Positions 1-42,771 are shown, counted from the first letter of the stretch. The stretch is 64,000 nucleotides of DNA from Microcoleus sp. (GCA_042408215.1 JAYFMW010000007.1:224001-288000), one strand, 5' to 3'. The notes: generated by a model not told the origin, from the sequence alone. Numbers and translations are program-made.

Positions 1-977
1 ATCGCCCAGGTGTGAGTAAATACGACCTTAACAAATATTGTGCGGTATTGGCTAAAGAATTTCCTTTTGCTGACGCACTTAATTCAATGGCTCGACAGTC
101 GGCTGCTGAGCGTTCTTGGAGTGCTATTTCTCGATTTTACGACAATTGCCGGAAAAAGGTTAAAGGTAAAAATGGCTTTCCTAAGTTGAAAAAATTCTCT
201 CGTTTTGTGGAGTATAAAACTTCAGTATAGGAACTATCTAAAACTCTAAAAAATATCATTTTTGCCGATAAAAAAGCTATGAAAAAAATGAATCTAAAGG
301 GAACATACGACCTTAAATACTATGACATAAAGCAAATTAAAAGAGTGCGATTTGTACGTCGTTCCGACGGCTATTATGATCGATTTGCGGTAGATGTAAA
401 GGTGAGAATTGAAACTGAACCTACCCATCAAATAGTTGGTTTGGATCTGGGGTTAAAGTATTTTATTGCTGATGACAAAGGCAATGTTGAACCACCCCCT
501 CAGTTCTCTCCAAAATCTGAACGGCAATTAAATCGCGATCGCCGCCAGAAATCGATCAAATATAGCAGCGATCGCAAGAAAGCAAGACAACCGCAGTCTA
601 ACAACTACCAGAAAGCTATAAATAGATAGGCCCGAAAACATTTAAGAGTAAGTAGGCAACGAAAAGAATATTGCAAGAGATTAGCATATTCCGTCATTCA
701 ATCTAAGGATTTGATAGCCTAGGAAGATTTAAATGTTAAAGGACTGGTAAGAAATCGACATCTAGCTAAATCTATTAGTGATGCTGGCTGGTCAACTTTT
801 CGCGGTTGCTTAGAATATTTTGGGCAAAAATATGGGAAGGTGACGGTAGCAGTACCGCCGCACTATAGGAGTCAAAATTGTTCTAACTGTGGTAATAAAG
901 TGCAAAAATCTCTTTCTGTTAGAACCCATATTTGTCCGCATTGTGGGTTTCCAGCAGACCGGGACGTAAACGCCAGC
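1..977 (+). pseudogene. tnpB: IS200/IS605-family TnpB, 5' part (degraded, begins before the window)
   Basis: Fragments 12-230, 279-629 (RuvC-I GLDLGL), AxEDLNV region, and 840-977 (zinc finger CSNCG..CPHCG, DRDVNAS); in-frame stops at 228, 627, 720, 810; TnpB sequence ends abruptly at 977. Confidence 0.9.
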
Positions 978-1374
978 AGTAGCCCGCACCGGCAACGGGT
1001 ATTTCTACAAGCTAACTGTAACAGACCCAGATGGCGACCTGCTGACTTTTAGATTGACCAAAGCACCAACAGGAATGAAGGTTGACAAGGACAGTTTGAT
1101 TGTCTGGACTCCCGGCGCAGGCGATGTGGGGCAGAAACAGGACGTGTCGGTGTCGGCTAGCGACGGCCAGGGGGGAAGCGACACTCAATCCTGGACTGTT
1201 AATGTCTCTAATTCGGCCGTTAACCGACCTCCAAGTATTACTTCGGTACCGGATACCGTTACTAATTTAGAGCGAGTTTATCGCTACCAGCTAACAGCTA
1301 CCGACCCCGAAGGAGACTATTTACTGTGGAGTTTGGATAATGCTCCCAAGGGTATGGTAATCGATGCTAATTAA
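978..1374 (+). pseudogene. Fragment of putative-Ig/cadherin-like repeats of a giant Rhs protein
   Basis: YKLTVTDPDGDLLTFRLTKAPTGM..WTP..ASDGQGG..NRPPSITS..YQLTATDPEGD repeats; no native start; frame break at ~1371 to the downstream Rhs frame. Confidence 0.75.
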
Positions 1375-1478
1375 GCGTTGTTGCCGATACTTATGCACCT
1401 AAAGTCAATATTATTGCCAGCAAAAATACAGCTAATCTCGGAGATTCGGTCACATTTACCGTCAATGCTGTCGATAAC

Positions 1479-4400
1479 GTGAAAGTAGAATCTTTGGGTT
1501 TGACTATCAACGGCACTCCTGTAGTTTTGGATGCACAAGGTCAAGCAAATGTCAAGGTAAATAATTTAGGAAATTTCACAGCAGTTGCAACAGCTAAAGA
1601 TGCGGCTGGAAATGTGGGGAATGCGACTCAAGCTGTGGCTGCAATTGATACTAGCGATGTCAACGCGCCAACTATCAACATCAGTTTAGAAGATGATGCA
1701 GAAATTACCGCACCTGTCAATATAGTTGGCACAATTAGTGACAGCAATTTAGCTTACTATACATTGGAAGTTGCCCCGGTTGGTGGCGGGCAAATTCCGG
1801 GCGATGGCGGAGGATTTAAGGAGGTTTATCGGGGAACTGCTGCTGTCAGCAACGGAACGGTTGCGACATTTGACCCGACTGTTTTAGCTAACGGCGCTTA
1901 CGTTCTCAAGTTCACTGCTTTCGACGCTAACGGTAACGGTTCGACTACTGAAAGGACGGTGAATGTTTCGGGTGATTTGAAGTTGGGGAATTTCCGGTTG
2001 TCGTTTACTGATTTATCCGTTCCAGTTGCGGGAATTCCGATTAACGTGACTCGAACTTACGATTCTTTGAATGCGAATAATGGCGATGATTTTGGCTACG
2101 GCTGGCGGATGGAATTCCGGGATACTGATTTGAAGACTTCTTTGAAAGCTGATCCGACTTACGAGGAGTTGGGGATAAATACCGTACCGTTTGACAGCAA
2201 GACTAAGGTGTTTATTACGTTACCTGGTGGTAAGCGGGAAACCTTTACTTTTAAGCCGACTCCGCATCATTTGAATCAGTATTTGGGAGGGGCTGGGCCG
2301 GGTGCTCAGATGTTCAAGCCTGCTTTTGAGTCTCAGAAAGGTTCGACGATGACTTTGACGGTTAAGGATGCGAATTTAGTCAGGAATGAGAACGGGTATT
2401 ACGGGGTGAACGCACAGCCTTTCAATCCTGAAAATCCTGCCTTTGGTGGGGTGTACGTGTTGACTACTAAGGAGGGATTGGTTTACGAGATTGATGCGAA
2501 GTCTGGGGATTTGTTGACTGCTACTGATGCGAATGGGAATAAGCTGACTTTCTCGGATGCGGGGATTAAGAGTAGTTCGGGTAAGTCGGTGACTTTTGAG
2601 AGGGATGTTGATGGGAGGATTGTCGGTGTTGTTGACCCGGATGGCAAGAAAGTCAAGTACGAATACGACGCGAAAGGGGATTTGGTTGCTGTTAAGGATA
2701 GGGAGAATAATGCAACTCGGTTTGAGTACGAAGATGAGGACAGACCGCACTTTTTAACTGAGGTAATTGACCCGTTGGGACGCAGTGGAGTCAAGACTGA
2801 CTACGACGATTCTGGTCGCCTCAAGCAGATGGTTGATGCGAATGGGTCGGCGGTGGAATTGGTTTATGACCCTAATAATTCCCTTCAGAAAGTTAAGGAT
2901 GTTTTTGGGAAGGAGACGACTTATGTTTACGACAGTCGGGGGAATGTTTTAACTGAGATTGACCCGTTAGGGAAGAGGGTTGATCGGACTTTTGATGGGG
3001 ATAATAATGTTTGGACTGAGACTGTAATTACCACTGAATTAAATGCTGCTGGCAATCCGGTTGAAATGCGGCAAACAACTGAATGGACTTACGACAGTCG
3101 GGGGAATAAGTTAACTGAAAAAGACCCGTTAGGTAATGTTTCGCGGTGGACTTATAACAGTCGGGGACAGGTTTTGACTGAAACCGACGCCCTGGGGAAT
3201 ACTGCGACTTACACCTATTCTCCGAGTGGGAATTTGCTGTCAACAAAAGATGCTGCGGGGAAAATTACCCAGCACAGTTATGATGCAAGGGGTCTGCGCC
3301 GTTCCACAACAGATGCTAACAACAAAATTACCCGCTATGAATACGACAATTCCGGCAATTTGATTCGCCAAACAGATGCAGAAGGCAACGACACTACTTA
3401 CACCTACAACAATTTAGGCAAGCGGTTGACCGAAACGAGAAAAGTAACTACTCCTTACGGGTTAGAAGAGTTAGTTACCGAGTGGAAATACGATGCAGAA
3501 GGACGGGTAGAATCCGTCATTGACGCCGAGGGTTATCTCACTAAATACGAATACGATGCTAACGACAACCGCACGGCTGTTGTTGATGGCTCGCGACGCC
3601 GGACTGAGTACGTTTACAATGAAAAGGGACAGTTGGAAGATATTATTTATCCTGAGAAAAATCCCAACGATCCTACCAAAAACCTGAAACTTAACAACAC
3701 TTACGACGCAGCAGGTCGCTTGGTAACTAGAACTGATGAATTGGGTCGCGTTACTCAATACAAATATGATGACGCGGGTCGCTTAACCGAAACAATTTAC
3801 CCCGATAAAACTCCTGCAAATGAGTTAGATAACCCCAGAACCAAAGTCGAGTATTACAAAAATGGCAATGTCAAAGCTGAAATTGACGAGCGGGGAAATC
3901 GCACCGAATACCGCTACAATGCTAACAACGAACTTGTCGAAATTATCTACCCAGACGGCACGCCCGATACTCTTGCATACAATCCGAAAACTGTTTACCA
4001 ATACGACGCAGCAGGCCGCCGGATTAGCGAAACAAATGCTCGCAACCGTACCACTACTTTTGTTTACGATGAATTAGATCGACTCACAGAAACTCGGTTC
4101 CCGGACAATACTAAAACAACCGCAACTTACGATGCTTTGGGACGGCGCGTTAGTTCCACTGACCGCAACGGTAAAGTAACAAAATACGAGTACAATGCAG
4201 CAGGTAAATTGACTGCTGTCGTCCAAAATTTGAATCAACCGGGTGTTGGATTAATTGAACTCAGGACTGAGTACAGTTATGATGAAGCAGGTCGGTTGAC
4301 TGGCGTTAAAGATGCCAATACTCGCGTTACTGAATACGATTACGATTTGGTAGGTCGTCCCTTAGCTACAATTTTACCCGATGAAAAATGGTCAGAAACT

Positions 4401-6446
4401 TATTACGATGGGGCTGGGAATGTTATCGGGTTAACGGATTTTAACGGCAACAGCGTTTTTTACGATTACGATGCGGGTGCTGCCCCTTCTGTTGGCAGTC
4501 AAAATCCTGTCAGGTACGCTTATACTCCAACTGGAAAGATTGCCAGCATTGTTGACAGTCGGGGTACGACCAGTTACAAGTATGATGAGCGAGATAGATT
4601 GATTTCTCGGACTGACCCGGATGGGCCTTACACGGCAAACAATGTGACCATTGAGTACGGGTATGATGCTGCGGGAAATATCACTTCGGTTGCTGTTCCG
4701 AACGGTACTACTGGTTACACTTACGATGAAAGAAATCGTTTGAAAACGGTGACTGACCCGGATGGTGGGGTGACGGCTTATTCCTACGATGCGGTTGGCA
4801 ATTTGTCAAGAACTGAATTCCCGAATGACGTGATTGAAACTCGCACTTACGATGATTTGAATCAGCTTAAGTTGCTGGAGTACAGCCGCCAGGGAACGGT
4901 GTTTTCTAAGTTCGATTACACCTTGGATGCTGCGGGGAACCGCCGCGCTGTTACTGAGTTGAACGGGCGCAAGGTTGAGTACGAGTATGACGATTTATAT
5001 CGGGTGACGAAGGAGACGATTACGGATGCTGTTGCGGGAAATCGGACGGTTAGTTACACCTATGATAAGGTTGGCAATCGCCTGAGTCGAAATGATTCTG
5101 TTGAGGGAGTTACGACTTATGTTTATGATAGCAACGACCGCCTGAAAACGGAGGAGTTGAAGCAGAATAATGCGGTCGTGCGTTCTTACGAGTACGGCTA
5201 CGATGATAATGGAAATACTCGGACTCGGACTCAGAAGGATGCTGCTGGTAATGTTGTTGAAACCGTAACTTACAGTTGGAATAAAGAGAATCGTTTGGTT
5301 GGAGTGCAAAGCTCTAATGGGGATACAGTTGCTTACAGTTACGATGCGGATGGAGTTCGGGTCAGCAAGACTGTGAATGGGGTAACGACTGAGTATTTGG
5401 TGGATAGCAATCGGGATTATGCTCAGGTTTTGGAGGAGCGTATTAATGACTCTTTGGGTGTGAGTTATGTTTACGGACGGGATTTGATTTCGCAGGAACG
5501 GGGGGTTGCTGATTCGTACTATTTGGTTGATGGTTTGGGCAGTACGAGGGGTTTGATGAATGGTGTTGGTGGGGTGACTGATGTTTACAATTATGATGCT
5601 TTTGGGAATTTAATTGGGAGGACGGGGAGTGCGGTTAATGGTTATTTGTATGCGGGGGAACAGTATGACTCGAATTTGGGGGGTTATTATTTAAGGCAGC
5701 GGTATTACGATCAGTATCGGGGTCGGTTTGCGTCTCAAGATCCGTTTGAGGGGTGGATGAGCGAGCCGATGAGCTTGCACAATTATTTGTATGCTCATGG
5801 GAATCCGGTTAATGCGATCGATCCTAGCGGTCTTTTTGCTACTACGGCTGACTACCTCAATCTTATATTCGCTGCTGGCGCTCTTGCTGCGATCGGCCAG
5901 GTCACGCTGAATACTGTTTTTACGTTCAGGGAAGGAACGCCGAACGAATTTCCGCCCGCACCGCCTCCTTTCCCGCTACCGCGCCCGTCGGAACCCGAAA
6001 TTTTGATTAACAAGCCGCCGGAGGATGGGTTTCCTCCGTCTCCGGAGCCTTTCCCGGTGCCGCAGCCTGAGAAACCGGAGCCTTTGATTACGCGGGTGCC
6101 GCTGTTGGGGCTTAAGGAGTATTTGGATAATTATGTTTTCTCTGCCATCTGTAACTTCTCTCCTAGAAAATTACAACATGAGTATAAACACGCGCCAGAT
6201 TTTGGAATTACTGGGAACTGGAATAGTACCAATCGCGCTCTCTTCATCAAAGCCTTGGAGGATCATATCCAAAATGCTCCCGTTCAAATACCAGGAACTT
6301 ATCGCGGTACGATACCAGTTACTCACTACTACGATCCAAACACTGAAAATTGGGTAGCTGTCGATCTAAACAACGATTTTGTCGCTGCTTGGAAACTATC
6401 AAACGCACAACGGGATAATTTATTAAATGGAGGAAATGTACAATGA
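1479..6446 (+). CDS. Rhs/YD-repeat polymorphic toxin (5'-truncated) with C-terminal colicin D-like tRNase domain
   Basis: Many YD repeats, Rhs core (YLYAGEQYD..YYLRQRYYD..GRF..DP..NYLYAHGNPVNAIDPSG), Pro-rich linker, C-terminus KLQHEYKHAPDFGITGNWN..GTYRG..HYYDPNT..AAWKLS resembling the colicin D catalytic domain; frame is open back to ~1371. Confidence 0.88.
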   Translation: MKVESLGLTINGTPVVLDAQGQANVKVNNLGNFTAVATAKDAAGNVGNATQAVAAIDTSDVNAPTINISLEDDAEITAPVNIVGTISDSNLAYYTLEVAPVGGGQIPGDGGGFKEVYRGTAAVSNGTVATFDPTVLANGAYVLKFTAFDANGNGSTTERTVNVSGDLKLGNFRLSFTDLSVPVAGIPINVTRTYDSLNANNGDDFGYGWRMEFRDTDLKTSLKADPTYEELGINTVPFDSKTKVFITLPGGKRETFTFKPTPHHLNQYLGGAGPGAQMFKPAFESQKGSTMTLTVKDANLVRNENGYYGVNAQPFNPENPAFGGVYVLTTKEGLVYEIDAKSGDLLTATDANGNKLTFSDAGIKSSSGKSVTFERDVDGRIVGVVDPDGKKVKYEYDAKGDLVAVKDRENNATRFEYEDEDRPHFLTEVIDPLGRSGVKTDYDDSGRLKQMVDANGSAVELVYDPNNSLQKVKDVFGKETTYVYDSRGNVLTEIDPLGKRVDRTFDGDNNVWTETVITTELNAAGNPVEMRQTTEWTYDSRGNKLTEKDPLGNVSRWTYNSRGQVLTETDALGNTATYTYSPSGNLLSTKDAAGKITQHSYDARGLRRSTTDANNKITRYEYDNSGNLIRQTDAEGNDTTYTYNNLGKRLTETRKVTTPYGLEELVTEWKYDAEGRVESVIDAEGYLTKYEYDANDNRTAVVDGSRRRTEYVYNEKGQLEDIIYPEKNPNDPTKNLKLNNTYDAAGRLVTRTDELGRVTQYKYDDAGRLTETIYPDKTPANELDNPRTKVEYYKNGNVKAEIDERGNRTEYRYNANNELVEIIYPDGTPDTLAYNPKTVYQYDAAGRRISETNARNRTTTFVYDELDRLTETRFPDNTKTTATYDALGRRVSSTDRNGKVTKYEYNAAGKLTAVVQNLNQPGVGLIELRTEYSYDEAGRLTGVKDANTRVTEYDYDLVGRPLATILPDEKWSETYYDGAGNVIGLTDFNGNSVFYDYDAGAAPSVGSQNPVRYAYTPTGKIASIVDSRGTTSYKYDERDRLISRTDPDGPYTANNVTIEYGYDAAGNITSVAVPNGTTGYTYDERNRLKTVTDPDGGVTAYSYDAVGNLSRTEFPNDVIETRTYDDLNQLKLLEYSRQGTVFSKFDYTLDAAGNRRAVTELNGRKVEYEYDDLYRVTKETITDAVAGNRTVSYTYDKVGNRLSRNDSVEGVTTYVYDSNDRLKTEELKQNNAVVRSYEYGYDDNGNTRTRTQKDAAGNVVETVTYSWNKENRLVGVQSSNGDTVAYSYDADGVRVSKTVNGVTTEYLVDSNRDYAQVLEERINDSLGVSYVYGRDLISQERGVADSYYLVDGLGSTRGLMNGVGGVTDVYNYDAFGNLIGRTGSAVNGYLYAGEQYDSNLGGYYLRQRYYDQYRGRFASQDPFEGWMSEPMSLHNYLYAHGNPVNAIDPSGLFATTADYLNLIFAAGALAAIGQVTLNTVFTFREGTPNEFPPAPPPFPLPRPSEPEILINKPPEDGFPPSPEPFPVPQPEKPEPLITRVPLLGLKEYLDNYVFSAICNFSPRKLQHEYKHAPDFGITGNWNSTNRALFIKALEDHIQNAPVQIPGTYRGTIPVTHYYDPNTENWVAVDLNNDFVAAWKLSNAQRDNLLNGGNVQ

Positions 6447-6850
6447 AGTTTGACATTACTAAATTTGAGTCGAAATTTGAAACTATCGTTCAACAATTTT
6501 TGGGAGGTGAAATGTCAGCAGAACAGTTTTCTTCTGATTTTACGACTCTCTGGATGAGTTTTAGGGATGAGCAATATAAAATCAAAGATACTTGGGATAA
6601 ACGCTACGATCTTGAACTTCTTGAGCATTTACAAAAAGGTGAACTAACAAGCGAAGAATTTACACAAAAATCTAGAGAACTTATGGGAACTACCGAGATT
6701 TTTGAGTTCATTAATATGGTAGACGCTATTCACAGTGCTTGCCATGTATTCAATCCTTTCCCTGGGCCTATATTTGAAGGGGAAATCACTGAAGAACAAT
6801 TAAGAGCAGAAGTTCAAGCACTTATTACCAACTATCAGAGTAAAAAATAA
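6443..6850 (+). CDS. Cognate immunity protein, colicin D immunity-like
   Basis: ATGA overlap with toxin stop; FLGGEMSAEQFSSDFTTLW..RD and FNP..EITEEQLRAEV motifs. Confidence 0.75.
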   Translation: MKFDITKFESKFETIVQQFLGGEMSAEQFSSDFTTLWMSFRDEQYKIKDTWDKRYDLELLEHLQKGELTSEEFTQKSRELMGTTEIFEFINMVDAIHSACHVFNPFPGPIFEGEITEEQLRAEVQALITNYQSKK

Positions 6851-6924
6851 TAGTTATAACGATTGATTTCCACTCGGGCGGCCGCCTGCGGGCTACTATT
6901 GACCAGACGAGCACGCAACTCACT

Positions 6925-8189
6925 ACAATTACGATGATGCGGATGGAATACGGGTCAGCAAGACTGTGAATGGGGTAACGACTGAGTATTTGGTGGATAG
7001 CAATCGGGATTATGCTCAGGTTTTGGAGGAGCGTATTAATGACTCTTTGGGTGTGAGTTATGTTTACGGACGGGATTTGATTTCGCAGGAACGGGGGGAT
7101 GCTGATTCGTTCTATTTGGTTGATGGTTTGGGCAGTACGAGGGGTTTGACGAATGCGTCGGGGGGGGTTACGGATGTTTACAATTACGATGCTTTTGGGA
7201 ATTTAATCGGGCGGACGGGAAGCACAGTTAATGGTTATTTGTATGCGGGGGAACAGTATGACTCGAATTTGGGGGGTTATTATTTAAGGAAGCGCTTTTA
7301 TGATGAGTATCGGGGTCGGTTTACTGCTCAAGACCCGTTTGAGGGTTTGATGAGCGATCCGATGAGTTTGCACAATTATTTGTATGCTCATGGGAATCCG
7401 GTTAATGCGATCGATCCTAGTGGTCTTTCTACTCTTTCGATGGATAGCCTACTCAGTCTTATCGCAACTGCTGGCGCTCTGGCTGCGATCGCCCAGCCCG
7501 CGATGAATATTGTGTTCGGGTTCGTTAAGGAGGGAACGCCGAACGAATTCCCGCCCGCACCGCCTCCTTTTCCAGTGCCTCGCCCGTCGGAACCGGAGAT
7601 TTTGATTAACAAGCCGCCTGCGGATGGGTTTCCTCCATCTCCTGAACCTTTCCCGGTGCCGAATCCTGAGAAACCGGATCCTTTGATTACGCGGGTTCCT
7701 CTGTTGGGGCTTAAGGAGTATTTGGATAATTATGTTTTTGGCTCTGAAGTTACTCAAGAGCATCTTAATCAAATTAGACAGATTGTCAATAAATACAAAA
7801 ATTTTGAGTGTGTAGAATGCGCCAATGAAATTAAAACGTACCTGAAAAGCCAAAAAATTAAGGGAAGGCATATTAGACTTGATACAGGAAATGTCAATGA
7901 GAACATCTATGATGACAATGTTGTTCTAGAACATGGAGAAGCAATTTCACTTAATGGTAAGCACGAAGCTATTTTAATCGAAATCGACTTGGAATTAGCG
8001 ATGGCTAACGGTGTTATTGGCATAGAGAATGCAACAGTTAATCAAGCTGGCAAAGTTAAAGTCGTTTTTGATAATCATCGCCCTAATGGAATGATTCAAG
8101 AATCATGGTTAAATGGACTACAGTTTCGTGGTAAACTATTTGGGAACCCACCCCAACAGTTTTCTCAAAAGGGAAGCAGAAATTTTTAG
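6925..8189 (+). CDS. Orphan Rhs module with papain-fold toxin (Tox-PL-2-like) C-terminus
   Basis: ~6925-7425 is near-identical to Rhs core 5335-5835; no native start (ORF track start 6966); C-terminus FECVECA..GKHEAI..VFDN suggests a Cys/His/Asp triad. Confidence 0.8.
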
Positions 8190-8212
8190 TCGGAAAGAAA
8201 AAGGAGAATAAA

Positions 8213-8512
8213 ATGGAATTTCTTTACGATTTTTTAAAAGAGATTAAAAAGAGACCGGGAATGTTTTTGCGAAGAAAATCCATTTTATATTTGCATTCAT
8301 TTTTGACAGGCTATGACATGGCTCGCTTCCACATGGGATTGTCAAAAACTAAACAAGAACAGAAATTTAATGATTTTGCAGAGTGGATACCAATTAAGTT
8401 TAATGACAATTCTACTCGCTCTTGGGCTGACATAATTCTTTTAAATTCAGAAGATGAAAGCCAAGCTTTCGATCGTTTTTTTGAACTACTTGAAGAATTC
8501 AAAAATTTGTAA
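8213..8512 (+). CDS. Putative immunity protein of the papain-fold toxin
   Basis: 99 aa, AGGAG RBS, directly after the toxin; IKKRPGMFL..FLTGY..W..SWADII..AFDRFFELLEEF. Confidence 0.7.
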   Translation: MEFLYDFLKEIKKRPGMFLRRKSILYLHSFLTGYDMARFHMGLSKTKQEQKFNDFAEWIPIKFNDNSTRSWADIILLNSEDESQAFDRFFELLEEFKNL

Positions 8513-8529
8513 TCAAAATAACAATTAGA

Positions 8530-8632
8530 ATATATCATACTAAACCAGAAGCTAATAATCGTTTCGCAAGCTTTTAAGGATTGCGTTGAAAATAATGGTT
8601 TAGAGGGTCGGAAATTCAAACAAGTTACTTGA
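8530..8632 (+). pseudogene. C-terminal remnant of an Imm11/DUF1629-like immunity gene
   Basis: IIVSQAFKDCVENNGLEGRKFKQVT* resembles the typical C-terminus of that family; no start. Confidence 0.4.
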
Positions 8633-8664
8633 GTCGTGCCTGATTTCCACTCGGGCTACCACTA

Positions 8665-9306
8665 ATGGATGGTGAAACAATGCAGCTAAACTTTTTTGAT
8701 TTTATTTTTTTAGAAAAAGAACTGGAATTCCTACCTTCTTTTCATAGACTCGCCTTTGCGGCTTCTATTTGCGAGAGGTTACTTCCCAACTACAACGCCT
8801 TCTCGAAAATCGAAAATTTTGGTAATTTTCGTGTCCTGAGACAAACACTGGATGAAATTTGGCAATTTTTACAAAACAATTCAGTAGATAGAACCAGAGT
8901 TCCTCAATTAATATATGATTGCGACAGCGATCTAATAATTCCCCACGCAGATGACTTTGGTGCTGGATATGCTTTAGAAGCGCAGGAAGCAGCTTTTGCA
9001 TTGTGCAATACTCTCGAAGCTTGTCTTAATCCAACACCGGAAGCTATTCTAAAAGTAGCTGATCGCGCTAAAAATACGATTGATGCATTTATCAATTTCG
9101 ATGAAACTTTCAGCCTACTGCAATCGCAAGATATGACAAAATATAAGCAGGCAATTGCTAGCCACCCCCTTGCAAGTCGAGAAATGGCAAAACAAACAGA
9201 GGATTTACAACGATTAAAAGGGACAGATATTTTAGATGAAGATTTTTTGGAGTGGCTTCGGACCTCTTCAAATAATAATGGAGTAAGTTTGATAGGCTTG
9301 TCCTAA
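8665..9306 (+). CDS. DUF416/YjaG-family protein (putative immunity)
   Basis: LAFAASICERLLPNY..F..LRQTLDEIW..HPL..E..Q..DL motif pattern. Confidence 0.75.
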   Translation: MDGETMQLNFFDFIFLEKELEFLPSFHRLAFAASICERLLPNYNAFSKIENFGNFRVLRQTLDEIWQFLQNNSVDRTRVPQLIYDCDSDLIIPHADDFGAGYALEAQEAAFALCNTLEACLNPTPEAILKVADRAKNTIDAFINFDETFSLLQSQDMTKYKQAIASHPLASREMAKQTEDLQRLKGTDILDEDFLEWLRTSSNNNGVSLIGLS

Positions 9307-9332
9307 GTTATATTAAACTCTATTTAACAGCG

Positions 9333-9983
9333 ATGTCTCAGTCTGTAGTAATGACTCCACAATTTTTTAACTTGGATTCTTTGAAACAAGAAATCAAACA
9401 ACTGTCCCATCTTCACCAAGTAGCTTTTGCCGCTTCTATTTGTGAAAGAATGCTGCCAATGTACGAGAAATTTTCTCGAAGGGCGAATTGGGGGCAGCCC
9501 TCTTTACTAAGAGAAGTGCTGGATGAAGTTTGGCTGATTCTACAAGAGAAATCAATCGCTCCGTCAAAAATTCGTAAATTAATGGAAAAAATTGACGGTG
9601 AAGGTATTTGCCCGGACTCGGATTCAGACGATTTTTGTGATGCTTATTACCTTTTTGAAGCTCAATTCACTATTTTGGCACTCTACTCTACTCTGACAAC
9701 CCTACTAACATCAGAATCTAAACATATTATTGAAGTTGTCGAAAATGCTAGATTTGACACTATTGAGGGATTTATTAGTCAAAGAGACAAGCTATACGAA
9801 GTAAAAAACTATCAAGATATGTTGGAACCAATTGCCAACGATCCGCTAGCAAAGCAGGAACTTGCCAAGGAAATGGAAGACTTACAAAATCTAAAAAAGG
9901 TCGATAAATTGTCAGTCGAATTTTTAGAAAAGCTTCGCACCTCCTCTTGCAATAAAGGTAAAAGCTTAATTGACTTGTTATGA
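9333..9983 (+). CDS. DUF416/YjaG-family protein, tandem paralog
   Basis: VAFAASICERMLPMY..LREVLDEVW..DPL..EL..DL; colinear with 8665-9306. Confidence 0.75.
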   Translation: MSQSVVMTPQFFNLDSLKQEIKQLSHLHQVAFAASICERMLPMYEKFSRRANWGQPSLLREVLDEVWLILQEKSIAPSKIRKLMEKIDGEGICPDSDSDDFCDAYYLFEAQFTILALYSTLTTLLTSESKHIIEVVENARFDTIEGFISQRDKLYEVKNYQDMLEPIANDPLAKQELAKEMEDLQNLKKVDKLSVEFLEKLRTSSCNKGKSLIDLL

Positions 9984-10145
9984 GACAGACAACGATCCTA
10001 TCGAATCATTTGGGCAAACATTGGATAGATGAAAAAAATGCTCTTGACAATTTTTTTGAATTGTACGAACTGTTTAAACGAGACTTCCTAGAGTGGCTCC
10101 GCACCTTTTTTGACGACGGTGGTAGAATTTTAATCGATATCTATC

Positions 10146-10880
10146 TTGAGCTATAGGATGATAAGCGCTATGACCAACATACTTTCCAATTCTGAGAAAG
10201 TGGAATATCTCGAAACAGCAAAAATTGATTGGTTTCACAACCAACTCAAAGCCTGGGCATCCCAAAACTTGCGCGACTTTCCCTGGCGGCGCACGAGCGA
10301 CCCTTACGCCATTTTTATCGCTGAATTCTTGCTGCAAAAAACGGTAGCCTCAACAGCAGCTCCCGTTTATGAAGCCTTTATCTCCCGCTATCCTACCTTA
10401 GCAGTTCTGGCCGCAACGCCTATAGAAAAAGTTGCTGTCGCTTTACAACCTTTAGGTTTGCACTTTCGAGCCGAAAGACTCTGCCAGTCAATGCAAATCA
10501 TCCTCGAACAACACAACGGCAAAATTCCCCGCACGGAATCTGAATTGCTTCAACTTCCTGGAGTTGGCTTGTATACAGCACGTTCTATTTGCGCCCATGC
10601 TTTCTCCCAACCAAAAGCAGTCCTCGATACCAACGTCGCCCGCATTTTAGAACGGTTTTTCGGCTTGCAGGGCAATCGGGTAAAATCACGGTGCAAGCTA
10701 CTTTGGATGACAGCAGAATTGGTTGCCCCCAATACAGAAGTGGGAAAGTGGAACCTAACACTGATTGACTTTGGCGCAGCCATATGCACGGCTAAAAACC
10801 CTCGCTGCGCGGATTGTCCGCTGAATGATCGCTGCAACTACTACATAAAATCTACTCATCATAAATTAAGATCTCCATGA
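10146..10880 (+). CDS. HhH-GPD [4Fe-4S] DNA glycosylase (short MutY/MIG-like)
   Basis: RDFPWR, EFLLQKT, HhH LPGVGLYTA, VLDTNVAR, CTAKNPRCADCPLNDRC; no MutT-like C-terminal domain. Confidence 0.85.
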   Translation: MSYRMISAMTNILSNSEKVEYLETAKIDWFHNQLKAWASQNLRDFPWRRTSDPYAIFIAEFLLQKTVASTAAPVYEAFISRYPTLAVLAATPIEKVAVALQPLGLHFRAERLCQSMQIILEQHNGKIPRTESELLQLPGVGLYTARSICAHAFSQPKAVLDTNVARILERFFGLQGNRVKSRCKLLWMTAELVAPNTEVGKWNLTLIDFGAAICTAKNPRCADCPLNDRCNYYIKSTHHKLRSP

Positions 10881-11270
10881 AACCAATCCCGCAATTTGAA
10901 GAACTCGCGATCGCCCTTATTGCCTCCAACCTCAACCCCACTCACTTTACCCCTGATTTCCTCTTCGGCAGCGGTATTGTCCCAGAACATTGGCAGCTAG
11001 CTCAACCCCCCCAGGGCGACCCCCACATGACAACAATTACCTTTACCAACGGCGCGATTGCATTTTTCACAACTAGACAGCCACTTTCTCAGAAACCCTA
11101 GAATCGAAATCTCTCAAACAGATACAAATACCGACAATCGTTTGCAAATGTGCCGATAGTTTGCTCAATGCCAACTATCAAAACAATCGGGCGATCGACA
11201 CCTTCGCGCATTCCCAACACAAATTTGTCCCTCGATAATTTTGCCCCAACAACTTATCAATTCCTGGGTC
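10877..11270 (+). pseudogene. Truncated conserved hypothetical gene
   Basis: ATGA overlap with the glycosylase; NLNPTHFTPDFLFGSGIVPEHWQLA; frame ends at 11101 while coding-like sequence continues. Confidence 0.45.
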
Positions 11271-11276
11271 AATAAC

Positions 11277-11804
11277 TTAGGCACTCTCTCCAGCAATAAG
11301 AGGCGATTTAATTTTTGACTTTCGCCACTTTTCTGCACTTTGTTTGACAGCTTCTATTTCCTCAAAATCTACTCTAACAACAGCGATTTCAAATTCTATA
11401 CCTAAAACCGTACAAACTTCGAGGATTTCTACAAAACTGGCACATTGATAATCTGTATCTTCATACTGCTTGACTCGCTGTTCTTCAATTCCCAGTATCT
11501 GAGCCAATTCTTTTTGATTGATTTGGGCTGCTATTCTCGCTTTTATTAAAGCATCCGGTAGCTTATTTATGCTTTCAACTTTAAGTGAAATATGCTGAGT
11601 GCGATCGCACTTCAGCAATCTTTCATAATCAGCTATTTCTGCTCTAAAAACATCCAAGTGACTTTGGATCGATTCGCGCATCGCCGACCACCAAGGATCG
11701 TTATTTTTTACCTCTTCATCTTGAGCGTCATAATTGGCTAGCGTATGTTCACATCTTTTCGCTAACTCTTGGGTATACTCGTATTGTCTTTCATTTCTAA
11801 TCAT
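11277..11804 (-). CDS. XRE-family HTH protein, putative antitoxin
   Basis: MIRNERQY N-terminus; LPDALIKARIAAQINQKELAQILGIEEQRVKQYE HTH; start overlaps the native stop of the upstream gene. Confidence 0.8.
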   Translation of the reverse strand: MIRNERQYEYTQELAKRCEHTLANYDAQDEEVKNNDPWWSAMRESIQSHLDVFRAEIADYERLLKCDRTQHISLKVESINKLPDALIKARIAAQINQKELAQILGIEEQRVKQYEDTDYQCASFVEILEVCTVLGIEFEIAVVRVDFEEIEAVKQSAEKWRKSKIKSPLIAGESA

Positions 11805-12247
11805 GGCCACCACCTTATTAAATCTATAGCAATAATTCCTTTAGGATTTCGTTCTCTGTCTCGCTGAAATAGTTCGTAGGAAGTGATATCATAACTGCCT
11901 ACTGGCTAGTCGGATGGAAAGATTTCACCGCGATAAAGAGCTTTTTGTGCTGCCCTGTCTGCATAATTTCTCAGTCGGGGGGCATAAGTTTTCAGATAAT
12001 TCATATCAACCTCTTCTCTATCCCAACAAGCATCAAAATCTTGAGGAGATAGTTTGCTAGTAATAAAACTGCCATTGATATAAATTGTTCTGCATCCTGC
12101 TGCTTTTAGTTGCTCCATTGCCATTTGCAATCCATCTATCATGCGACTGCGAAGTGGTGTTGTTCCAAATCGCTCTTTGAACTCTTCCCATTCTGTCCAA
12201 TACACTCCTGGTGGTAGGTTGCCGTTCTCATCAAATTCTGGAATCAT
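11801..12247 (-). pseudogene. DUF6932-like nucleotidyltransferase toxin with premature stop
   Basis: MIPEFDENGNLPPG..YINGSFITSKLSPQDFD; TAG at 11906-11908 followed in frame by PVGSYDITSYELFQRDRERNPKGIIAIDLIRWWP*. Confidence 0.75.
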
Positions 12248-12414
12248 GCGATCGCACCCTTAAATTTTAACACAATTTCCTTGTCTGTTTATAATGACTG
12301 TTGATTTACTCAGCATACCTCGATTGTTAACAAAAAGCGATCGCTCAACTTAGAACCAAAACCTTTAGATTGCTAACTTGGAACAATCCGACTTCGGATA
12401 AGCATCAAATAGTC

Positions 12415-13500
12415 ATCTTTGGGCTTAACTATCAACGGCACTCCGATTGCTATAGACGCACAAGGAAGAGCAACTGTCAAGTTAAATAACTTAACTCCCA
12501 TCACAGCAATTGCAACAGCTAAAGATGCGGCCGGAAATGTGGGGAATGCGACTCAAGTTGTCAGGGCGATTGATACTAGCGATGTCAACGCGCCAACTAT
12601 CAACATCAGTTTAGAAGATGATGCAGAAATCACTGCACCTGTCAACATCACCGGCACGATTAGTGACAGCAATTTAGCTTACTATACATTAGAAGTTGCT
12701 CCGGTTGGTGGCGGGAAAATTCCGGGCGATGGCGGAGGATTTAAGGAGGTTTATCGGGGAACTGCTGCTGTCAGCAACGGAACGATTGCGACATTTGACC
12801 CGACTGTTTTGGCTAACGGCGCTTACGTTCTCAAGTTCACTGCTTTTGACGCTAACGGTAACGGTTCGACTGCTGAAAGGACGGTGAATGTTGCGGGAGA
12901 TTTGAAGTTGGGTAATTTCCGGTTGTCGTTTACTGATTTATCCGTTCCAGTAGCGGGAATTCCGATTAATGTAACTCGAACTTACGATTCTTTGAATGCC
13001 AATGCTAGCGATGATTTTGGCTACGGCTGGCGGATGGAATTCCGGGATACTGATTTGAAGACTTCGCTAAAACCCGATCCGACTTATGAGGAGTTGGGCA
13101 TCAATACCGTAGCATTTGATAGCAAGACTAAGGTATTCATTACCTTACCTGGTGGTAAGCGGGAAACCTTTACTTTTAAGCCGACTTCGCATCATCTGAA
13201 TCAGTATTTAGGAGGGGCTGGGCCGGGGGCTGCAATGTACAAGCCGGCTTTTGAGTCGCATTCGGGTTCGACGATGACTCTGACTGTTAAGGATGCGAAT
13301 TTGATACGGAATGAGAACGGGTATTATGGGGTAAACGGACAGCCCTTCAATCCTGAAAATCCTGCCTTTGGTGGCATATATGTGTTGACTACCAAGGAAG
13401 GATTGGTTTACGAGATTGATGCGAAGTCTGGGGATTTGCTGACGGCTACTGATGCTAACGGAAATAAGCTATCTTTTAGCGATGCGGGGATTAAGAGTAG
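12415..13500 (+). pseudogene. Second, truncated copy of the Rhs N-proximal region
   Basis: 1086-bp colinear direct repeat of 1490-2575 with scattered substitutions; truncated at 13500 where tnpB resumes. Confidence 0.9.
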
Positions 13501-13653
13501 ATCAACATTCTGAAACGGGGACTAGCTACGGTGGGGCACACCGGAACTTACGCTTGGGGAGATTTACCCTCTTGGGCTGTTGGTGTAAACTTGCGGTCTA
13601 ATGGCGAGTCGTTGAACCCCGAATCCCCTGATTTATAATCGGGGGAGTGTCAA
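13501..13653 (+). mobile_element. tnpB: 3' end of tnpB plus IS200/IS605 right end (omega-RNA scaffold region)
   Basis: Translates INILKRGLATVGHTGTYAWGD..ESLNPESPDL*; hairpin TCCCCTGATT..AATCGGGGGA followed by GTGTCAA. Confidence 0.88.
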
Positions 13654-13693
13654 CATAGGTCTATCGAAATATACCAACTACAACTAAAAGGTT

Positions 13694-14491
13694 ATGCAGA
13701 AGATCGACGACGGATCATTAAGGGAGATGAGAAGTTCTCAAAACCTGCCAGAATGGCTAGAATTGGCAGAATACGCCTCTATTGCTGGTTCAGCTATTGG
13801 CACGATTGCCGCAGGATTGTCAGGGCACATTGTCTACGCTGCCACTCCCTTGACCCTAGCACTATCCCTGAATCTCGTCAATCGCCAGCGTTTCGACCAA
13901 AAAATGCAACAAAAGTCAAATTCTGCGATCGCGGGCGTAGAATTGGCAGTAAAGTCCCTCCAACAGCAAGTTCAGACACTACCTGGGGAACCTACGGAAC
14001 TCTACACCGCCGTCTCCGACTTGCAGCAAAAACTCAGTAGCTTGGAATCCCACACGATCGCCGACGTACAGGCTGCGGTAAAATCCCTTGAGCAACAAGT
14101 GCAGGAATTTCCGGGAGAGTCTCAGCAACTCTACCCCATGCTTTCCCAATTGCAGCAAAAACTGCACAGCTTGGAAAATAGCGCCCTCAGAGAGCAAGAT
14201 TGGGAAAATGTGAATGTTCGGTTTTTATTGATGGGCGAAAAATTAACGGAAGTTAAAAATATTACAGCAGAGTTGCAGGAGCGATCGTCCGAGGTAGACT
14301 TCAGTGAAATCCAAGATACCGTGAAGCAATTGCAAGTTTTACTCGCTCGACCCACAATAGACGTAGCGACACTGCAAACCGAGATGCATCAATTGCAGGA
14401 GCAAGTTTCCGAATTGGAGCGCCTCAATCAAGAAATTGTCAAGCCTTATTTGCAGCGCCTGATTCGTGCCATGAAACACCTCAGTCAGTAG
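13694..14491 (+). CDS. Hypothetical membrane-anchored coiled-coil protein
   Basis: N-terminal hydrophobic segment (YAATPLTLALSLNLVNR), internally repeated heptad region. Confidence 0.75.
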   Translation: MQKIDDGSLREMRSSQNLPEWLELAEYASIAGSAIGTIAAGLSGHIVYAATPLTLALSLNLVNRQRFDQKMQQKSNSAIAGVELAVKSLQQQVQTLPGEPTELYTAVSDLQQKLSSLESHTIADVQAAVKSLEQQVQEFPGESQQLYPMLSQLQQKLHSLENSALREQDWENVNVRFLLMGEKLTEVKNITAELQERSSEVDFSEIQDTVKQLQVLLARPTIDVATLQTEMHQLQEQVSELERLNQEIVKPYLQRLIRAMKHLSQ

Positions 14492-14542
14492 TTATTGGTT
14501 ATTGGTCAGTAGTCATTAGTCAGTAGTCATTAGTCAGTAGTC

Positions 14543-14602
14543 GTAGGGTGCGTCGCCACTTTGAATCCCTCAAAAAAATAGACAATCGATGAGCGACGCA
14601 CC
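14543..14602. repeat. REP-like palindromic element
   Basis: GTAG-GGTGCGTCGC ... GCGACGCACC inverted repeat following an STRR tract. Confidence 0.55.
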
Positions 14603-14682
14603 AAACCAAGAGTCCGACGTCCGACGTCCGACGTCATTTCGATCGAGTGCTGTATCGGCGATCGAGCTAGAAGCTCGCACTG

Positions 14683-15534
14683 CTAATTATGAAACTTTTG
14701 CCAAGCCTGCCAAAAAACATAAATCGATAAAATTGCCAAGAGCGATCGAAAAGCCAAACTCACAACTCGATCGGACAATCTGGGCAAAAACCGCGTGCTA
14801 ACTTGCACACCCAACAAACCCCCACCGCCCAGAATCAGCCCCACAACCCACAATACATTCCCCCGCGCAGCGTGGCCAGCGGTCGCCGAAATTGCCGTAA
14901 TCACGATCGCGCCCAAGCTCGTTTGAATTGCTGTTTTAATACTTTCTCCTAACAGCAAAATTTGCAGCGGCACCATAATCACGCCTCCACCCACACCAAA
15001 CAAACCCGCTAATAAACCAGCCGCACTGCCGGTAGCAATTCTCGCAAAAATGGGATTCACTAAAACATTTGAATCCTTGGGTAATGGGTCATTGGTAATG
15101 GGTAATGGGTAATTAGTAATGGGTAATTGAGGATTTTCCCGTCCCTCTTCCACTAGATTCTTAGCAGTCAAGCGTTTGCGAACTTCTACCAAATAAATAT
15201 TCAGCCACAGCAACAGCCCAAAAGTAACTAACAACAAATAAGGCGGAAATATCCCCGCCAAATAAACACCAACTTGTGCTGTGATTACGGCTGGAAATCC
15301 GATGCCTGCGACTTGACTCAAACTGAGATAACCCATGCGCCAATTCTGGAAGCTACCAGAAATCGCTGTAATGACGATCGACAAACTGCTGGTAGCAACC
15401 GCTTGCACAGGCGCGTAATTGAGAGCCACCAACAGAGGTACGAGTACCGTCCCGCCACCAATACCCAAAAATCCAGCTAGAATTCCGGCAAAAAGTCCGG
15501 CCGCAGCCAGAATCAATAATTCGTTGATAGTCAT
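14683..15534 (-). CDS. Sulfite exporter TauE/SafE family membrane protein
   Basis: Duplicated GFLGIGGG / GLFGVGGG motifs, AVATS, multiple TM segments. Confidence 0.9.
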   Translation of the reverse strand: MTINELLILAAAGLFAGILAGFLGIGGGTVLVPLLVALNYAPVQAVATSSLSIVITAISGSFQNWRMGYLSLSQVAGIGFPAVITAQVGVYLAGIFPPYLLLVTFGLLLWLNIYLVEVRKRLTAKNLVEEGRENPQLPITNYPLPITNDPLPKDSNVLVNPIFARIATGSAAGLLAGLFGVGGGVIMVPLQILLLGESIKTAIQTSLGAIVITAISATAGHAARGNVLWVVGLILGGGGLLGVQVSTRFLPRLSDRVVSLAFRSLLAILSIYVFWQAWQKFHN

Positions 15535-15863
15535 TAGTTAGTAGTCATTAGTCATTAGTCATTAGTCATTAGTCATTAGTCATTAGTCATTAGTCATTAG
15601 TCAACAGTTAACAGTTAACAGTCATTAGTTAGTAGTCATTAGTTAGTAGTCATTAGTCATTAGTCAACAGTTAACAGTTAACAGTCAACAGTCAACAGTT
15701 AACAGTTAACAGTCATTAGTTAGTAGTCATTAGTCATTAGTCAACAGTCAACAGTTAACAGTTAACAGTCATTAGTTAGTAGTCATTAGTCATTAGTCAA
15801 CAGTTAACAGTTAACAGTTAACAGTCAACAGTTAACAGTCAACAGTCAACAGTCAACAGTCAA
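15530..15863. repeat. STRR heptamer tandem array (TCATTAG / TTAACAG / TCAACAG)
   Basis: Directly visible tandem 7-mers. Confidence 0.95.
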
Positions 15864-15873
15864 CTCCCAACTT

Positions 15874-16716
15874 TTAAGAATCATGAGTTGTACCGTCGGG
15901 CATAATCGCCCGCCTCAAATCAGCATCCCGGAAGTTAGCTCGATTGAGGTTAGCATCAATCAAAACTGCTTCCATCAGAACGGCCCCGCTGAAATTAGAC
16001 CAGCACAGCTTAGCCCGGTACAAATTAGCACCGCTCAAATTAGCTCCCCGCAGGCTTGACCAACTCACATTGGCGACTCTCAAATTAGCATTGCTCAGAT
16101 TAGCTTCGCTCAGATTAGCCCCAACCATCGTTACTTGGCGCAAATCTGCACCAGTAAGATTTGCGCCGCTGAGCATCGCCCCGCTGAGGATAGCAGTTGT
16201 CAAGTTAGCTCTTTCCAAAAGCGACTCGCTGAGAATAGCATTTGTCAGGTTTACCGCTTTGAGAATTGACCAACTCAAATTTGCCTTCATTAAATTAATG
16301 CGAATCATGCTAGCGTCCGTTAAGTTGGCCGCCGACAAATTTGCTTCAGTAAAGTTAGCTTCTGTCAGATTTGCTTCCGTCAAGTTAGCCTTGCTCATAT
16401 TGACTTCTCTAGCCATTGAGCCACGCAGGTTCGCTCCACTAAGGTTGGCTCCGCTCAGATTGGCGCGACTCAAATCAGTGCCGATGAGATTTGCTTCGCT
16501 GAGGTTGGCTTCCGTCAGATCAACCCCTGTGAGTTTCACCTCGCGCAGGTTCGCTCCCGTCAGGTTGGCGCCTTTGAGATTTGCATCCTGGAAATTAGCT
16601 CTGGTAAAGTTAGCCTCGCTGAGGTCTACCCCCTTGAGGTCAGCCCCCGCGAGGTTAATCTCTCGAAAAATTCTTTCTCCGGCCGCATATTGCCTCAAAA
16701 TTCGATCGGCCTCCAT
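15874..16716 (-). CDS. Pentapeptide repeat protein
   Basis: Continuous A(N/D)LxG repeats, YAAGER N-terminus, AIMPDG C-terminus. Confidence 0.95.
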   Translation of the reverse strand: MEADRILRQYAAGERIFREINLAGADLKGVDLSEANFTRANFQDANLKGANLTGANLREVKLTGVDLTEANLSEANLIGTDLSRANLSGANLSGANLRGSMAREVNMSKANLTEANLTEANFTEANLSAANLTDASMIRINLMKANLSWSILKAVNLTNAILSESLLERANLTTAILSGAMLSGANLTGADLRQVTMVGANLSEANLSNANLRVANVSWSSLRGANLSGANLYRAKLCWSNFSGAVLMEAVLIDANLNRANFRDADLRRAIMPDGTTHDS

Positions 16717-42009: not shown

Positions 42010-42771
42010 ATGAATGCTCATGTTTTTGATTGGGAAATACCCCCAAATGACCTAATATTTAATAGCGATGAAGTTCATGTTTGGCGCGTCGATCTGTCGA
42101 TGACAGCATCTTGCCTGCAAAGCTTGCAGGAGACTCTCTATACTGATGAACTCAAAAGAGCAGAGCGTTTTTACTTTCAGAATGACAGAGCGCATTTTAT
42201 CGCAGCTCGCGGTGTTCTCAGGACAATTTTGGGACGCTATCTAAATAGAAATCCTGACGAACTGCGGTTTAGCTACAACCACTACGGAAAACCATCTTTA
42301 GTTACCGCAGGCTCTGAAGATAAACTTTGCTTCAATTTGTCTCACTCTTACGGAATTGCTCTCATCGGTGTTACGCAAAATCGAGAAGTCGGCATTGATA
42401 TTGAACGCATTCGTAAAGATTTTTCCTACCAGCAGATAGCCGAAAGTTTTTTTTCGCCTTTTGAAAATGCCGTATTGCGATCGCTCCCCGTGCATCTCCA
42501 AGAAAAGGCTTTTTTCACCGGCTGGACTCGCAAAGAAGCCTATATCAAAGCAGTCGGGAAAGGACTTTCTATTCCGCTTAATAAGTTTGATGTCACCCTG
42601 GCTCCAGGAGAACCAGCAGCGCTATTAAACTTTCAAGAAAACCCCCAAGAAGTATCCAGGTGGACTCTGATTGAATTAATCCCTGGTTCAGATATGGTAG
42701 CAACTCTTGCCGTTGAGGGCGATCGCTGCAAAGTTCTCTGCTGGCAATTCTTGAAGAGAGGGGGAAAGTAG
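42010..42771 (+). CDS. Sfp/HetI-type 4'-phosphopantetheinyl transferase
   Basis: YGKP, FNLSHS, VGIDIE, WTRKEAYIKAVGKGL. Confidence 0.95.
   Translation: MNAHVFDWEIPPNDLIFNSDEVHVWRVDLSMTASCLQSLQETLYTDELKRAERFYFQNDRAHFIAARGVLRTILGRYLNRNPDELRFSYNHYGKPSLVTAGSEDKLCFNLSHSYGIALIGVTQNREVGIDIERIRKDFSYQQIAESFFSPFENAVLRSLPVHLQEKAFFTGWTRKEAYIKAVGKGLSIPLNKFDVTLAPGEPAALLNFQENPQEVSRWTLIELIPGSDMVATLAVEGDRCKVLCWQFLKRGGK

Follow-up and report, generated by a model that had tools for sequence, protein, structure and literature searches.

How does a 12.5-kb block of toxin and immunity genes come to lie in the middle of a transposon gene, and is the resulting structure a mobile one? The question is raised by a locus of the cyanobacterium Microcoleus sp. 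(GCA_042408215.1, JAYFMW010000007.1:224001-288000). The window, by which we mean the whole stretch of 64,000 nt that was analysed, corresponds to positions 224001-288000 of contig C7 in a genome (G000) of 7.36 Mb and 30 contigs, in which the word GCGATCGC is found 5,097 times where about 112 occurrences would be expected, an overabundance that we take to be a cyanobacterial mark. The first-pass annotation, made from the sequence alone, had noticed that a cassette of Rhs toxin/immunity genes splits a tnpB gene, and had proposed that the cassette was either captured as cargo inside an IS605 element, possibly giving a mobile antagonism island, or patched in by repair. The host element is a tnpB-only member of the IS200/IS605 family of insertion sequences (IS), and we give a probability of roughly 60% to the reading that DNA of an Rhs array was inserted non-homologously into this element when it was already resident and dead. 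The parts of the structure are the following.

1-977, plus strand: 5' piece of the tnpB pseudogene, equivalent to residues 1-364 of an intact 409-amino-acid relative; the gene start lies upstream of the window
978-13500, plus strand: insert of 12,523 bp, a slice of an Rhs polymorphic-toxin array, with AGTAG at 978-982 and 13496-13500
13501-13638, plus strand: 3' piece of tnpB, 45 codons (INILKRG...ESPDL) and a stop codon, equivalent to residues 365-409 of the intact relative
13624-13653, plus strand: right end of the IS, consisting of the hairpin CCCCTGATT-TAT-AATCGGGGG (13624-13645) followed by AGTGTCAA, with 13653 as its last base

Frame 3 of the window translates as TnpB over 3-977, with the terminal residues ...HICPHCGFPADRDVNAS, and the translation of 13501-13635 is INILKRGLATVGHTG...ESPDL, after which a stop codon follows. 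As the first-pass annotation had read them, the 5' piece ends with the codons GAC CGG GAC GTA AAC GCC AGC at 977 and the 3' piece opens with ATC AAC ATT CTG AAA CGG GGA at 13501; the break thus falls between codons 364 and 365, within the last RuvC motif (DRDVNAS/INIL). The closest relative of this tnpB is an intact 409-amino-acid gene (L002), which belongs to a genome from another family and shows 76% nucleotide identity. Base 977 corresponds to position 2461 of L002 (by extrapolation, the 5' piece having no net gaps), and the 3' piece continues from position 2462. The same adjacency of 977 and 13501 was found in L005, L008 and L006, and hence in all four intact relatives in which both pieces align up to the break. 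At the protein level, residues 1-364 and 365-409 are 75% and 78% identical to the L002 TnpB, respectively. Because the two pieces together make up the residues of one relative, both halves best match one subfamily, and the outcome named beforehand as evidence against a split gene, halves from different subfamilies, did not occur. Judged from these alignments, a single tnpB is split exactly to the base. The more distant tnpB copies resident in the genome carry an extra loop of 6-8 residues after ...KGL, which explains a difference of 21 nt in length downstream of the break and leaves the joint unaffected.

The split is not the only lesion of the gene. The 5' piece contains in-frame TAG codons at 228-230, 627-629 and 720-722, which stand at W, Y and Y codons of the intact relative and are each one base change away from them, and the start codon, formerly ATG, is now ACG; no frameshift was found in about 370 codons. 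These changes mean that tnpB is dead independently of the split. The Pfam OrfB_IS605 model matches 231-626 with an E value of 2.3e-5 and 25 bits, below the cut-off of 30.5 bits because the gene is in pieces, and the Cas12f1-like_TNB model matches 723-977 (3.3e-19) up to profile position 57 of 60, where the break cuts it; the intact 409-amino-acid relative passes both models. This tnpB is present only once in the genome, where the remaining tnpB copies show at most 70% nucleotide identity. Exact words from the two sides of the break were also without a match, namely a 27-mer (951-977) in the genome_contigs collection and a 29-mer (13501-13529) in the metagenome_contigs collection; such scans detect near-identical DNA only, and both collections hold one genome per species, so that conspecific strains fall outside the sample. 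Elsewhere in the window there are two more apparently intact tnpB genes with OrfB_IS605 and TNB matches, at 50934-52100 on the plus strand and 62314-63618 on the minus strand.

A contig that wrongly joins tnpB to Rhs repeats would produce the same picture, and Rhs repeats may indeed be hard to assemble, given that Rhs arrays elsewhere in this genome lie at or near contig ends (C18, C19). Contigs of four public runs from four studies (X1, X2, X14 and X18), compared with 1-14200 and informative on presence only, were therefore of interest, one of the runs possibly being the source sample. The left joint (977/978) is bridged by contigs of X1 (1-1200), X2 (1-1208) and X18 (309-1200) with 0-3 differing letters and more than 200 letters on each side, and the right joint (13500/13501) is bridged by an X18 contig (13414-14200) without any difference and with 87 letters on the shorter side. 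A further contig, from X14 (13471-14200), spans the right joint with 30 letters on its left, one under the criterion. In these contig data, which are too weak to support a claim on cover, the unique interior of the insert and the flanks have about equal word depth in all four runs. The joints at which wrong assembly was to be feared are thus bridged by public-run contigs. Two wrong joins would, moreover, need to restore one tnpB to the base, and no repeat longer than 5 nt exists at the joints. Misassembly is very unlikely, and we regard this explanation as scarcely credible. In X18, several bins within 3319-7110 lack cover, and one contig skips 6143-9349 (joining 6142 to 9350) with 30 letters on one side; the X18 strain may carry another set of toxin tips in the same insert, an observation too weak to claim.

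The limits of the IS are equally well defined. Its left end, sought upstream of the window at the suggestion of the first-pass annotation, lies at position 223743 of contig C7, 258 bp before window base 1, and its right end is window base 13653, which gives a length of 1,388 bp without the insert and 13.9 kb with it. The occupied site reads TTTTAT/AGAAAGAGG...[13.9 kb]...GGGGGAGTGTCAA/CATAGG, that is, TTTTAT/AGAAAG...GTGTCAA/CATAGG. Empty sites exist in three relatives: GCTTTTAT/CATAGG in G008, where the match is exact and the flanks are 95-96% identical to the locus, and GCTTCTAT/CATATG in G020 and GCTTTTAT/CATGTC in G093, each with one or two base changes. Homology to these sites resumes at 13654 in G008 and G020 and at 13661 in G093 (BLAST), in agreement with the right end, a hairpin followed by TCAA, that had been placed at 13653; the empty sites thus set the limits of the element at C7:223743 and 13653. 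The chromosomal flanks are conserved, each being matched in 77 of the 79 genomes of the genus comparison set (78 besides G000), and the match tables give a distance of about 170-410 bp between the flanks in G010, G007, G087, G066, G047, G094 and G093 versus about 14.1 kb here. The IS is inserted 3' of TTTTAT, and no base is repeated, i.e., there is no target-site duplication.

Both ends of the IS retain the structures expected of the family. The stem of the right-end hairpin measures 9-10 bp (fold z -1.96) and that of the left-end hairpin 8 bp (z of the region -2.5), and the two share a related apex (GATT..AATC). The right-end stem and the AGTGTCAA terminus are kept in L002 and in every one of the 20 resident copies, and the terminus ...GGAGTGTCAA is common to the IS at the locus and all 20 resident tnpB 3' ends examined. 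No tnpA gene was found between the IS ends; tnpB-only members are usually without one. The rest of the genome contains 20 Y1_Tnp matches, of which 19 exceed the cut-off and 11 are near full length and free of stops. The abundant resident IS family is inserted after TTAC (11/11) and has a different left end. A scan of 1-16000 with Rfam returned no guide-RNA family at E values up to 0.1, and a SNORD100 match was dismissed as a chance one (30.7 bits against a cut-off of 58). Across 20 resident copies that have otherwise diverged, a stretch of 34 nt (13527-13560) shows 91-94% conservation, as would be expected of an RNA scaffold. Among the sequencing runs searched, none of RNA contained the locus.

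In G008 (C403, L022), a different insertion of about 2.3 kb lies about 190 bp upstream of the equivalent target in the same spacer, the target itself being empty, and is homologous to places in G000 with Y1 transposase genes (C20:496-497 kb, C3:452-454 kb); several IS200/IS605 elements may insert into this intergenic spacer. Many short genomic repeats of the form CCCCCAAAGTTTGTCCTTAAGAATCCCCG...GGGGAGTGTCAA resemble protein-less derivatives with the right-end architecture of the tnpB families; a loose 13-mer search for such derivatives gave 321 matches, chance ones among them.

How, then, was the insert joined to tnpB? Homology to the Rhs paralogs runs from 977 (CAGTAGCC...) to AAGAGTAG at 13500, with alignments ending at 13492-13507, and beyond these limits the paralogs read ...CCCCGCA upstream and TTCGGG... 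or TACGGG... downstream; both ends of the insert lie within Rhs sequence, as had been proposed. At the left joint, 2 nt (CA, 977-978) are common with tnpB, and the position is ambiguous by these 2 nt; at the right joint the number is 0. No base of the tnpB target was lost or duplicated at the insertion, and the longest repeat at the joints is 5 nt. The ends of the insert show no more folding than shuffled sequences do (z -0.04 and +0.98), whereas hairpins are present at the IS's own ends. AGTAG does stand at the start and end of the insert, but it is native Rhs sequence in the paralogs and not a target duplication. Taken as a motif it was rejected, with 8 copies in 12.5 kb versus about 12 expected and none at the other Rhs joints examined.

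The two copies of AGTAG also bear on a different explanation, in which the breaks in tnpB, in the Rhs DNA or in both were made by a sequence-directed enzyme, either TnpA working on pseudo-ends or a TnpB with a guide RNA, supplied by an IS copy within an Rhs paralog, and the staggered cuts were then filled in. Such filling in would account for AGTAG at both termini, otherwise a coincidence of about 1 in 1,000, and TTAC, the target or adjacent motif of the resident family, is found 15 nt upstream of the left AGTAG in the Rhs paralogs, TnpB being an enzyme that makes staggered cuts about 15-21 nt from its motif. However, the genome contains no IS whose right end adjoins that TTAC flank, the four sites found being all intact; the right AGTAG has neither TTAC nor TTAT at the matching distance; and the tnpB break is not next to a TTAC target of the resident family. 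With the lack of hairpins at the insert ends and of any enrichment of AGTAG, this makes a directed nuclease decidedly improbable. The bottom-strand TTGAT at the break was considered as a TnpA target and rejected, the resident family using TTAC (11/11) and the IS at the locus TTTTAT.

The genes carried by the insert are listed below.

978-1370, plus strand: fragment of the immunoglobulin-like He_PIG/Big_9 repeats of an Rhs-type giant protein (He_PIG 1.4e-9; 81-82% identity to four paralogs on contig C30)
1371-6446, plus strand: 5'-truncated Rhs gene, open from 1371 with its first GTG at 1479, with DUF6531, 18 RHS-repeat stretches and a Colicin_D tip
6443-6850, plus strand: putative immunity open reading frame (ORF) of 135 amino acids, overlapping the Rhs stop codon, suggested by its position and by a Colicin_immun match (E 3.3e-4, 21.6 bits, below the 22-bit cut-off)
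6903-8189, plus strand: orphan Rhs C-terminal module with a papain-fold Tox-PL-2 tip (1.6e-24), its 5' part 89% identical to 5334-6139
8213-8512, plus strand: putative immunity ORF of 99 amino acids after the orphan tip, proposed from position only, with 0 family matches
8665-9306 and 9333-9983, plus strand: two paralogous DUF416 genes (1.1e-34 and 1.8e-28)
10146-10880 and 10877-11101, plus strand: HhH-GPD/EndoIII-like gene and an ORF of 74 amino acids, from the domain search
11277-12247, minus strand: XRE-type helix-turn-helix (HTH) gene (11277-11813) and DUF6932 gene (11906-12247), from the domain search
12415-13500, plus strand: second Rhs fragment, cut at both ends, 89.8% identical to 1490-2578, with the last codons ...GIKS

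The 11 main ORFs occupy almost the whole coding space of the insert, and no integrase, transposase or recombinase domain was found in them, which bears out the first-pass remark that the insert has no integrase. The Rhs gene scores 3.5e-136 with RHS_repeat and 4.2e-19 with Colicin_D (residues 1564-1646), and ...NAIDPSGL occurs in the translations of both toxin tips (Colicin_D and Tox-PL-2), ...DPSGL being presumably the core-end motif that precedes a toxin tip. The left end of the insert lies 1,847 codons into a 4,134-amino-acid paralog (C30:10248-22652); with at least 1,847 N-terminal codons lost, the Rhs gene cannot encode a complete protein, and its N-terminal export region is missing. At 1370/1371 there is a deletion of 922 bp relative to the paralogs, and it creates a stop codon. 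The HTH/DUF6932 module is found as a solitary pair in many genomes of the genus (about 84% identity over 11419-12346). Over 11308-12346, the minus-strand pair recurs by itself, with 76-85% identity, in many of the genus's genomes as well as on a plasmid, and it resembles a small mobile toxin-antitoxin-like module that took the place of the 5' part of the second Rhs gene. Further along the window, the plus strand of 25408-33204 carries nonribosomal peptide synthetase genes (C-A, methyltransferase, T-C-A-T-TE), the first of which starts within a condensation domain, and a phosphopantetheinyl transferase gene lies at 42010-42771.

Related DNA is found within and outside the genome. Rhs/He_PIG giant genes, with ORFs of up to 4,134 amino acids and many cut fragments, form arrays at C30:10-78 kb, at C19:102-121 kb and over the whole of contig C18. 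These resident paralogs are about 90% identical to the insert over the first third only, and 68-71% identical in the Rhs core. Closer matches come from other species: 91.5% over 4,772 bp, colinear with the Rhs gene, and 90.5% over 2,540 bp in G076 (C27, L020), and 93.9% over 2,543 bp and 90.7% over 2,133 bp in G090 (C109, L019). The block 8559-11097, from the DUF416 pair through the EndoIII-like gene and the small ORF, is 94% identical in G090 and 91% in G076. The chromosomal flanks of the locus in these two genomes are only 79-84% identical, versus 91-94% for the cassette, and this difference suggests, short of proof, an exchange of Rhs DNA between species. Both matching loci are ordinary Rhs arrays with different tips, and no tnpB was found beside either array in the 20 kb read. 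In G076, about 600 bp after the EndoIII-like gene, there is sequence found ahead of Rhs genes in the array on C30, which points to a natural context of "Rhs - tips - DUF416 x2 - EndoIII - next Rhs". The insert resembles a segment of an array that begins midway through one Rhs gene and ends midway through the following one, with the HTH/DUF6932 module and the 922-bp deletion as further changes. Related Rhs genes are also present on three plasmids of Oscillatoria nigro-viridis PCC 7112 (88-89%).

Recombination of orphan modules is a feature of Rhs polymorphic toxin arrays. In the arrays of this genome, several 5'-cut fragments have non-homologous joints, and the paralogs are mosaic, with 72-99% identity per 100-column bin (two Rhs repeats versus 9 paralogs) and no single switch point, which implies frequent gene conversion. 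Similar joints, cut fragments and mosaicism together indicate that illegitimate and homologous exchange are routine for Rhs DNA.

The identity values also bear on whether the composite as a whole has moved. In this scenario, the Rhs block entered tnpB elsewhere, possibly in another strain or on a plasmid, and the 13.9-kb unit from left end to right end was brought to TTTTAT by a Y1 TnpA acting in trans. The outer borders of the extra DNA coincide exactly with the IS ends, at a TTAY-type target and without duplication, and the hairpins, the common right terminus and the 11 near-full-length Y1 genes are as described above. An arrival from outside would also fit a tnpB that has no other copy in the genome and its nearest relative in another family, a cassette closer to the loci of other species than the flanks are, and Rhs paralogs on plasmids of a related named strain. 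On the other hand, the composite is single-copy, with no second site in the genome; neither 40 relatives nor the 78 other genomes of the genus gave a match across its junction; and at 13.9 kb it is ten times the usual length of the element. Excision of IS608 depends on single-stranded DNA at the fork and hence drops steeply as the element grows longer. The resident families insert at TTAC and have another left end, so that compatibility of the left end at this locus is only a possibility, and three stops in tnpB versus none in the cassette are easier to understand if the cassette is younger than the IS. On balance, arrival of the composite by transposition is unlikely. The stronger version, in which the left end, the tnpB 5' piece, the Rhs cassette, the tnpB 3' piece and the right end form a working non-autonomous IS200/IS605 transposon that resident Y1 transposases excised from long single-stranded DNA, for example the transforming or conjugative DNA of a Microcoleus-like strain, has an outside chance; if it were true, the ends of tnpB elements would ferry toxin/immunity cassettes between species, and the contrast between cassette and flank identities would be explained. 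Thus the first-pass premise, that IS200/IS605 ends can be mobilised in trans by TnpA, is plausible here in view of the intact-looking ends, the Y1 genes and the shared termini, although this does not amount to mobility of the composite, and the mobile island finds no support in a single-copy structure with a truncated Rhs gene.

Repair, the other proposal, fits best, because the joints share 2 and 0 nt, nothing of the target was duplicated or lost, and the insert lacks both terminal hairpins and a recombinase. Under this favoured reading, a tnpB-only element of 1,388 bp would have landed 3' of TTTTAT in the intergenic spacer and decayed; a break between tnpB codons 364 and 365 would then have been closed with 12.5 kb of Rhs-array DNA, either through non-homologous joining or through copying, with no site-specific enzyme taking part. 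The DNA would come from an Rhs array, possibly that of another strain. The whole Rhs block may have been joined at once, or a short fragment (1.6-2.5 kb) of a single Rhs gene may have come first, the interior being added later by homologous recombination via a 1.1-kb repeat. The two-step route is attractive because both ends of the insert, in the same orientation, fall in the first 2.5 kb of an Rhs unit; binned identity neither supports nor rejects the crossover that it involves. As for the timing, there are 3 stops in about 370 tnpB codons versus 0 in the 1,691-codon Rhs frame, which is colinear with a relative's gene. This difference suggests that the cassette arrived after decay of the IS had begun, or that it is under selection.

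Several points weigh against this reading. First, the intermediate, an IS at this site without the insert, was not found: no contig of the four runs joins 977 to 13501, and the exact-word scans returned no copy. Since no intermediate allele was found, the order of the IS first and the cassette second is one that we infer, as is the mode of joining. Second, there is no donor locus in the genome, where 8559-11097 has no second copy and the Rhs core of the resident genes is only 68-71% identical. Third, a Ku gene is absent from the genome, which is 99.98% complete; classical end joining is therefore unlikely, and Ku-dependent end joining was ruled against as the route. Fourth, a base-exact insertion without loss of target is tidier than most repair scars. 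Finally, AGTAG at both termini is unexplained; its recurrence would be expected by chance in about 1 in 1,000 comparisons, or perhaps 1 in 200 when the ways of looking are allowed for. Even so, the best reading of the outcome is a displaced, export-dead piece of a toxin array, and a scar instead of a functioning mobile island, in which the putative immunity genes may still be working.

The locus can be compared with several known systems. It resembles tnpB-only IS200/IS605 elements (IS1341-like; IS608 and ISDra2 are well-known members of the family) in a TnpB with OrfB_IS605 and zinc-ribbon/TNB domains, a TTAY target without duplication, subterminal hairpins, a right end that overlaps the tnpB 3' end, and the presence of sister families and Y1 genes in the genome, but differs in that its gene is dead and split by 12.5 kb of non-IS DNA, with no tnpA of its own and no second copy. 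With Rhs/YD-repeat polymorphic toxin arrays that have orphan toxin-immunity modules (Zhang et al. 2012, PMC3482391), it shares RHS repeats, a tip after ...DPSGL followed by a small ORF, an orphan tip that shares the core end, and mosaic paralogs; unlike them, the insert lies outside any array and inside an IS, lacks 1,847 or more N-terminal codons and has non-homologous joints. IStrons combine a group I intron with an IS605 tnpB (10.1101/2023.11.20.567912). They too have foreign sequence between IS ends, near the 3' part of tnpB, but the passenger in an IStron is an intron that splices itself out and so leaves the element functional, whereas here 12.5 kb of protein-coding DNA destroys tnpB. 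Among the titles and abstracts listed in literature searches on IS605/TnpB cargo and on cyanobacterial Rhs, none describes an Rhs block inside tnpB.

The locus provides a clean example, resolved to the base, of a piece of a toxin array that has left its array and landed elsewhere, by what appears to be illegitimate joining. Intact-looking IS200/IS605 ends now surround a toxin/immunity block in a genome that is rich in Y1 transposases and contains protein-less derivatives, and if the composite were shown to move, it would provide immunity genes with a new way of spreading. For now, the locus illustrates the plasticity of the genome of a repeat-rich cyanobacterium and calls for no new mechanism.

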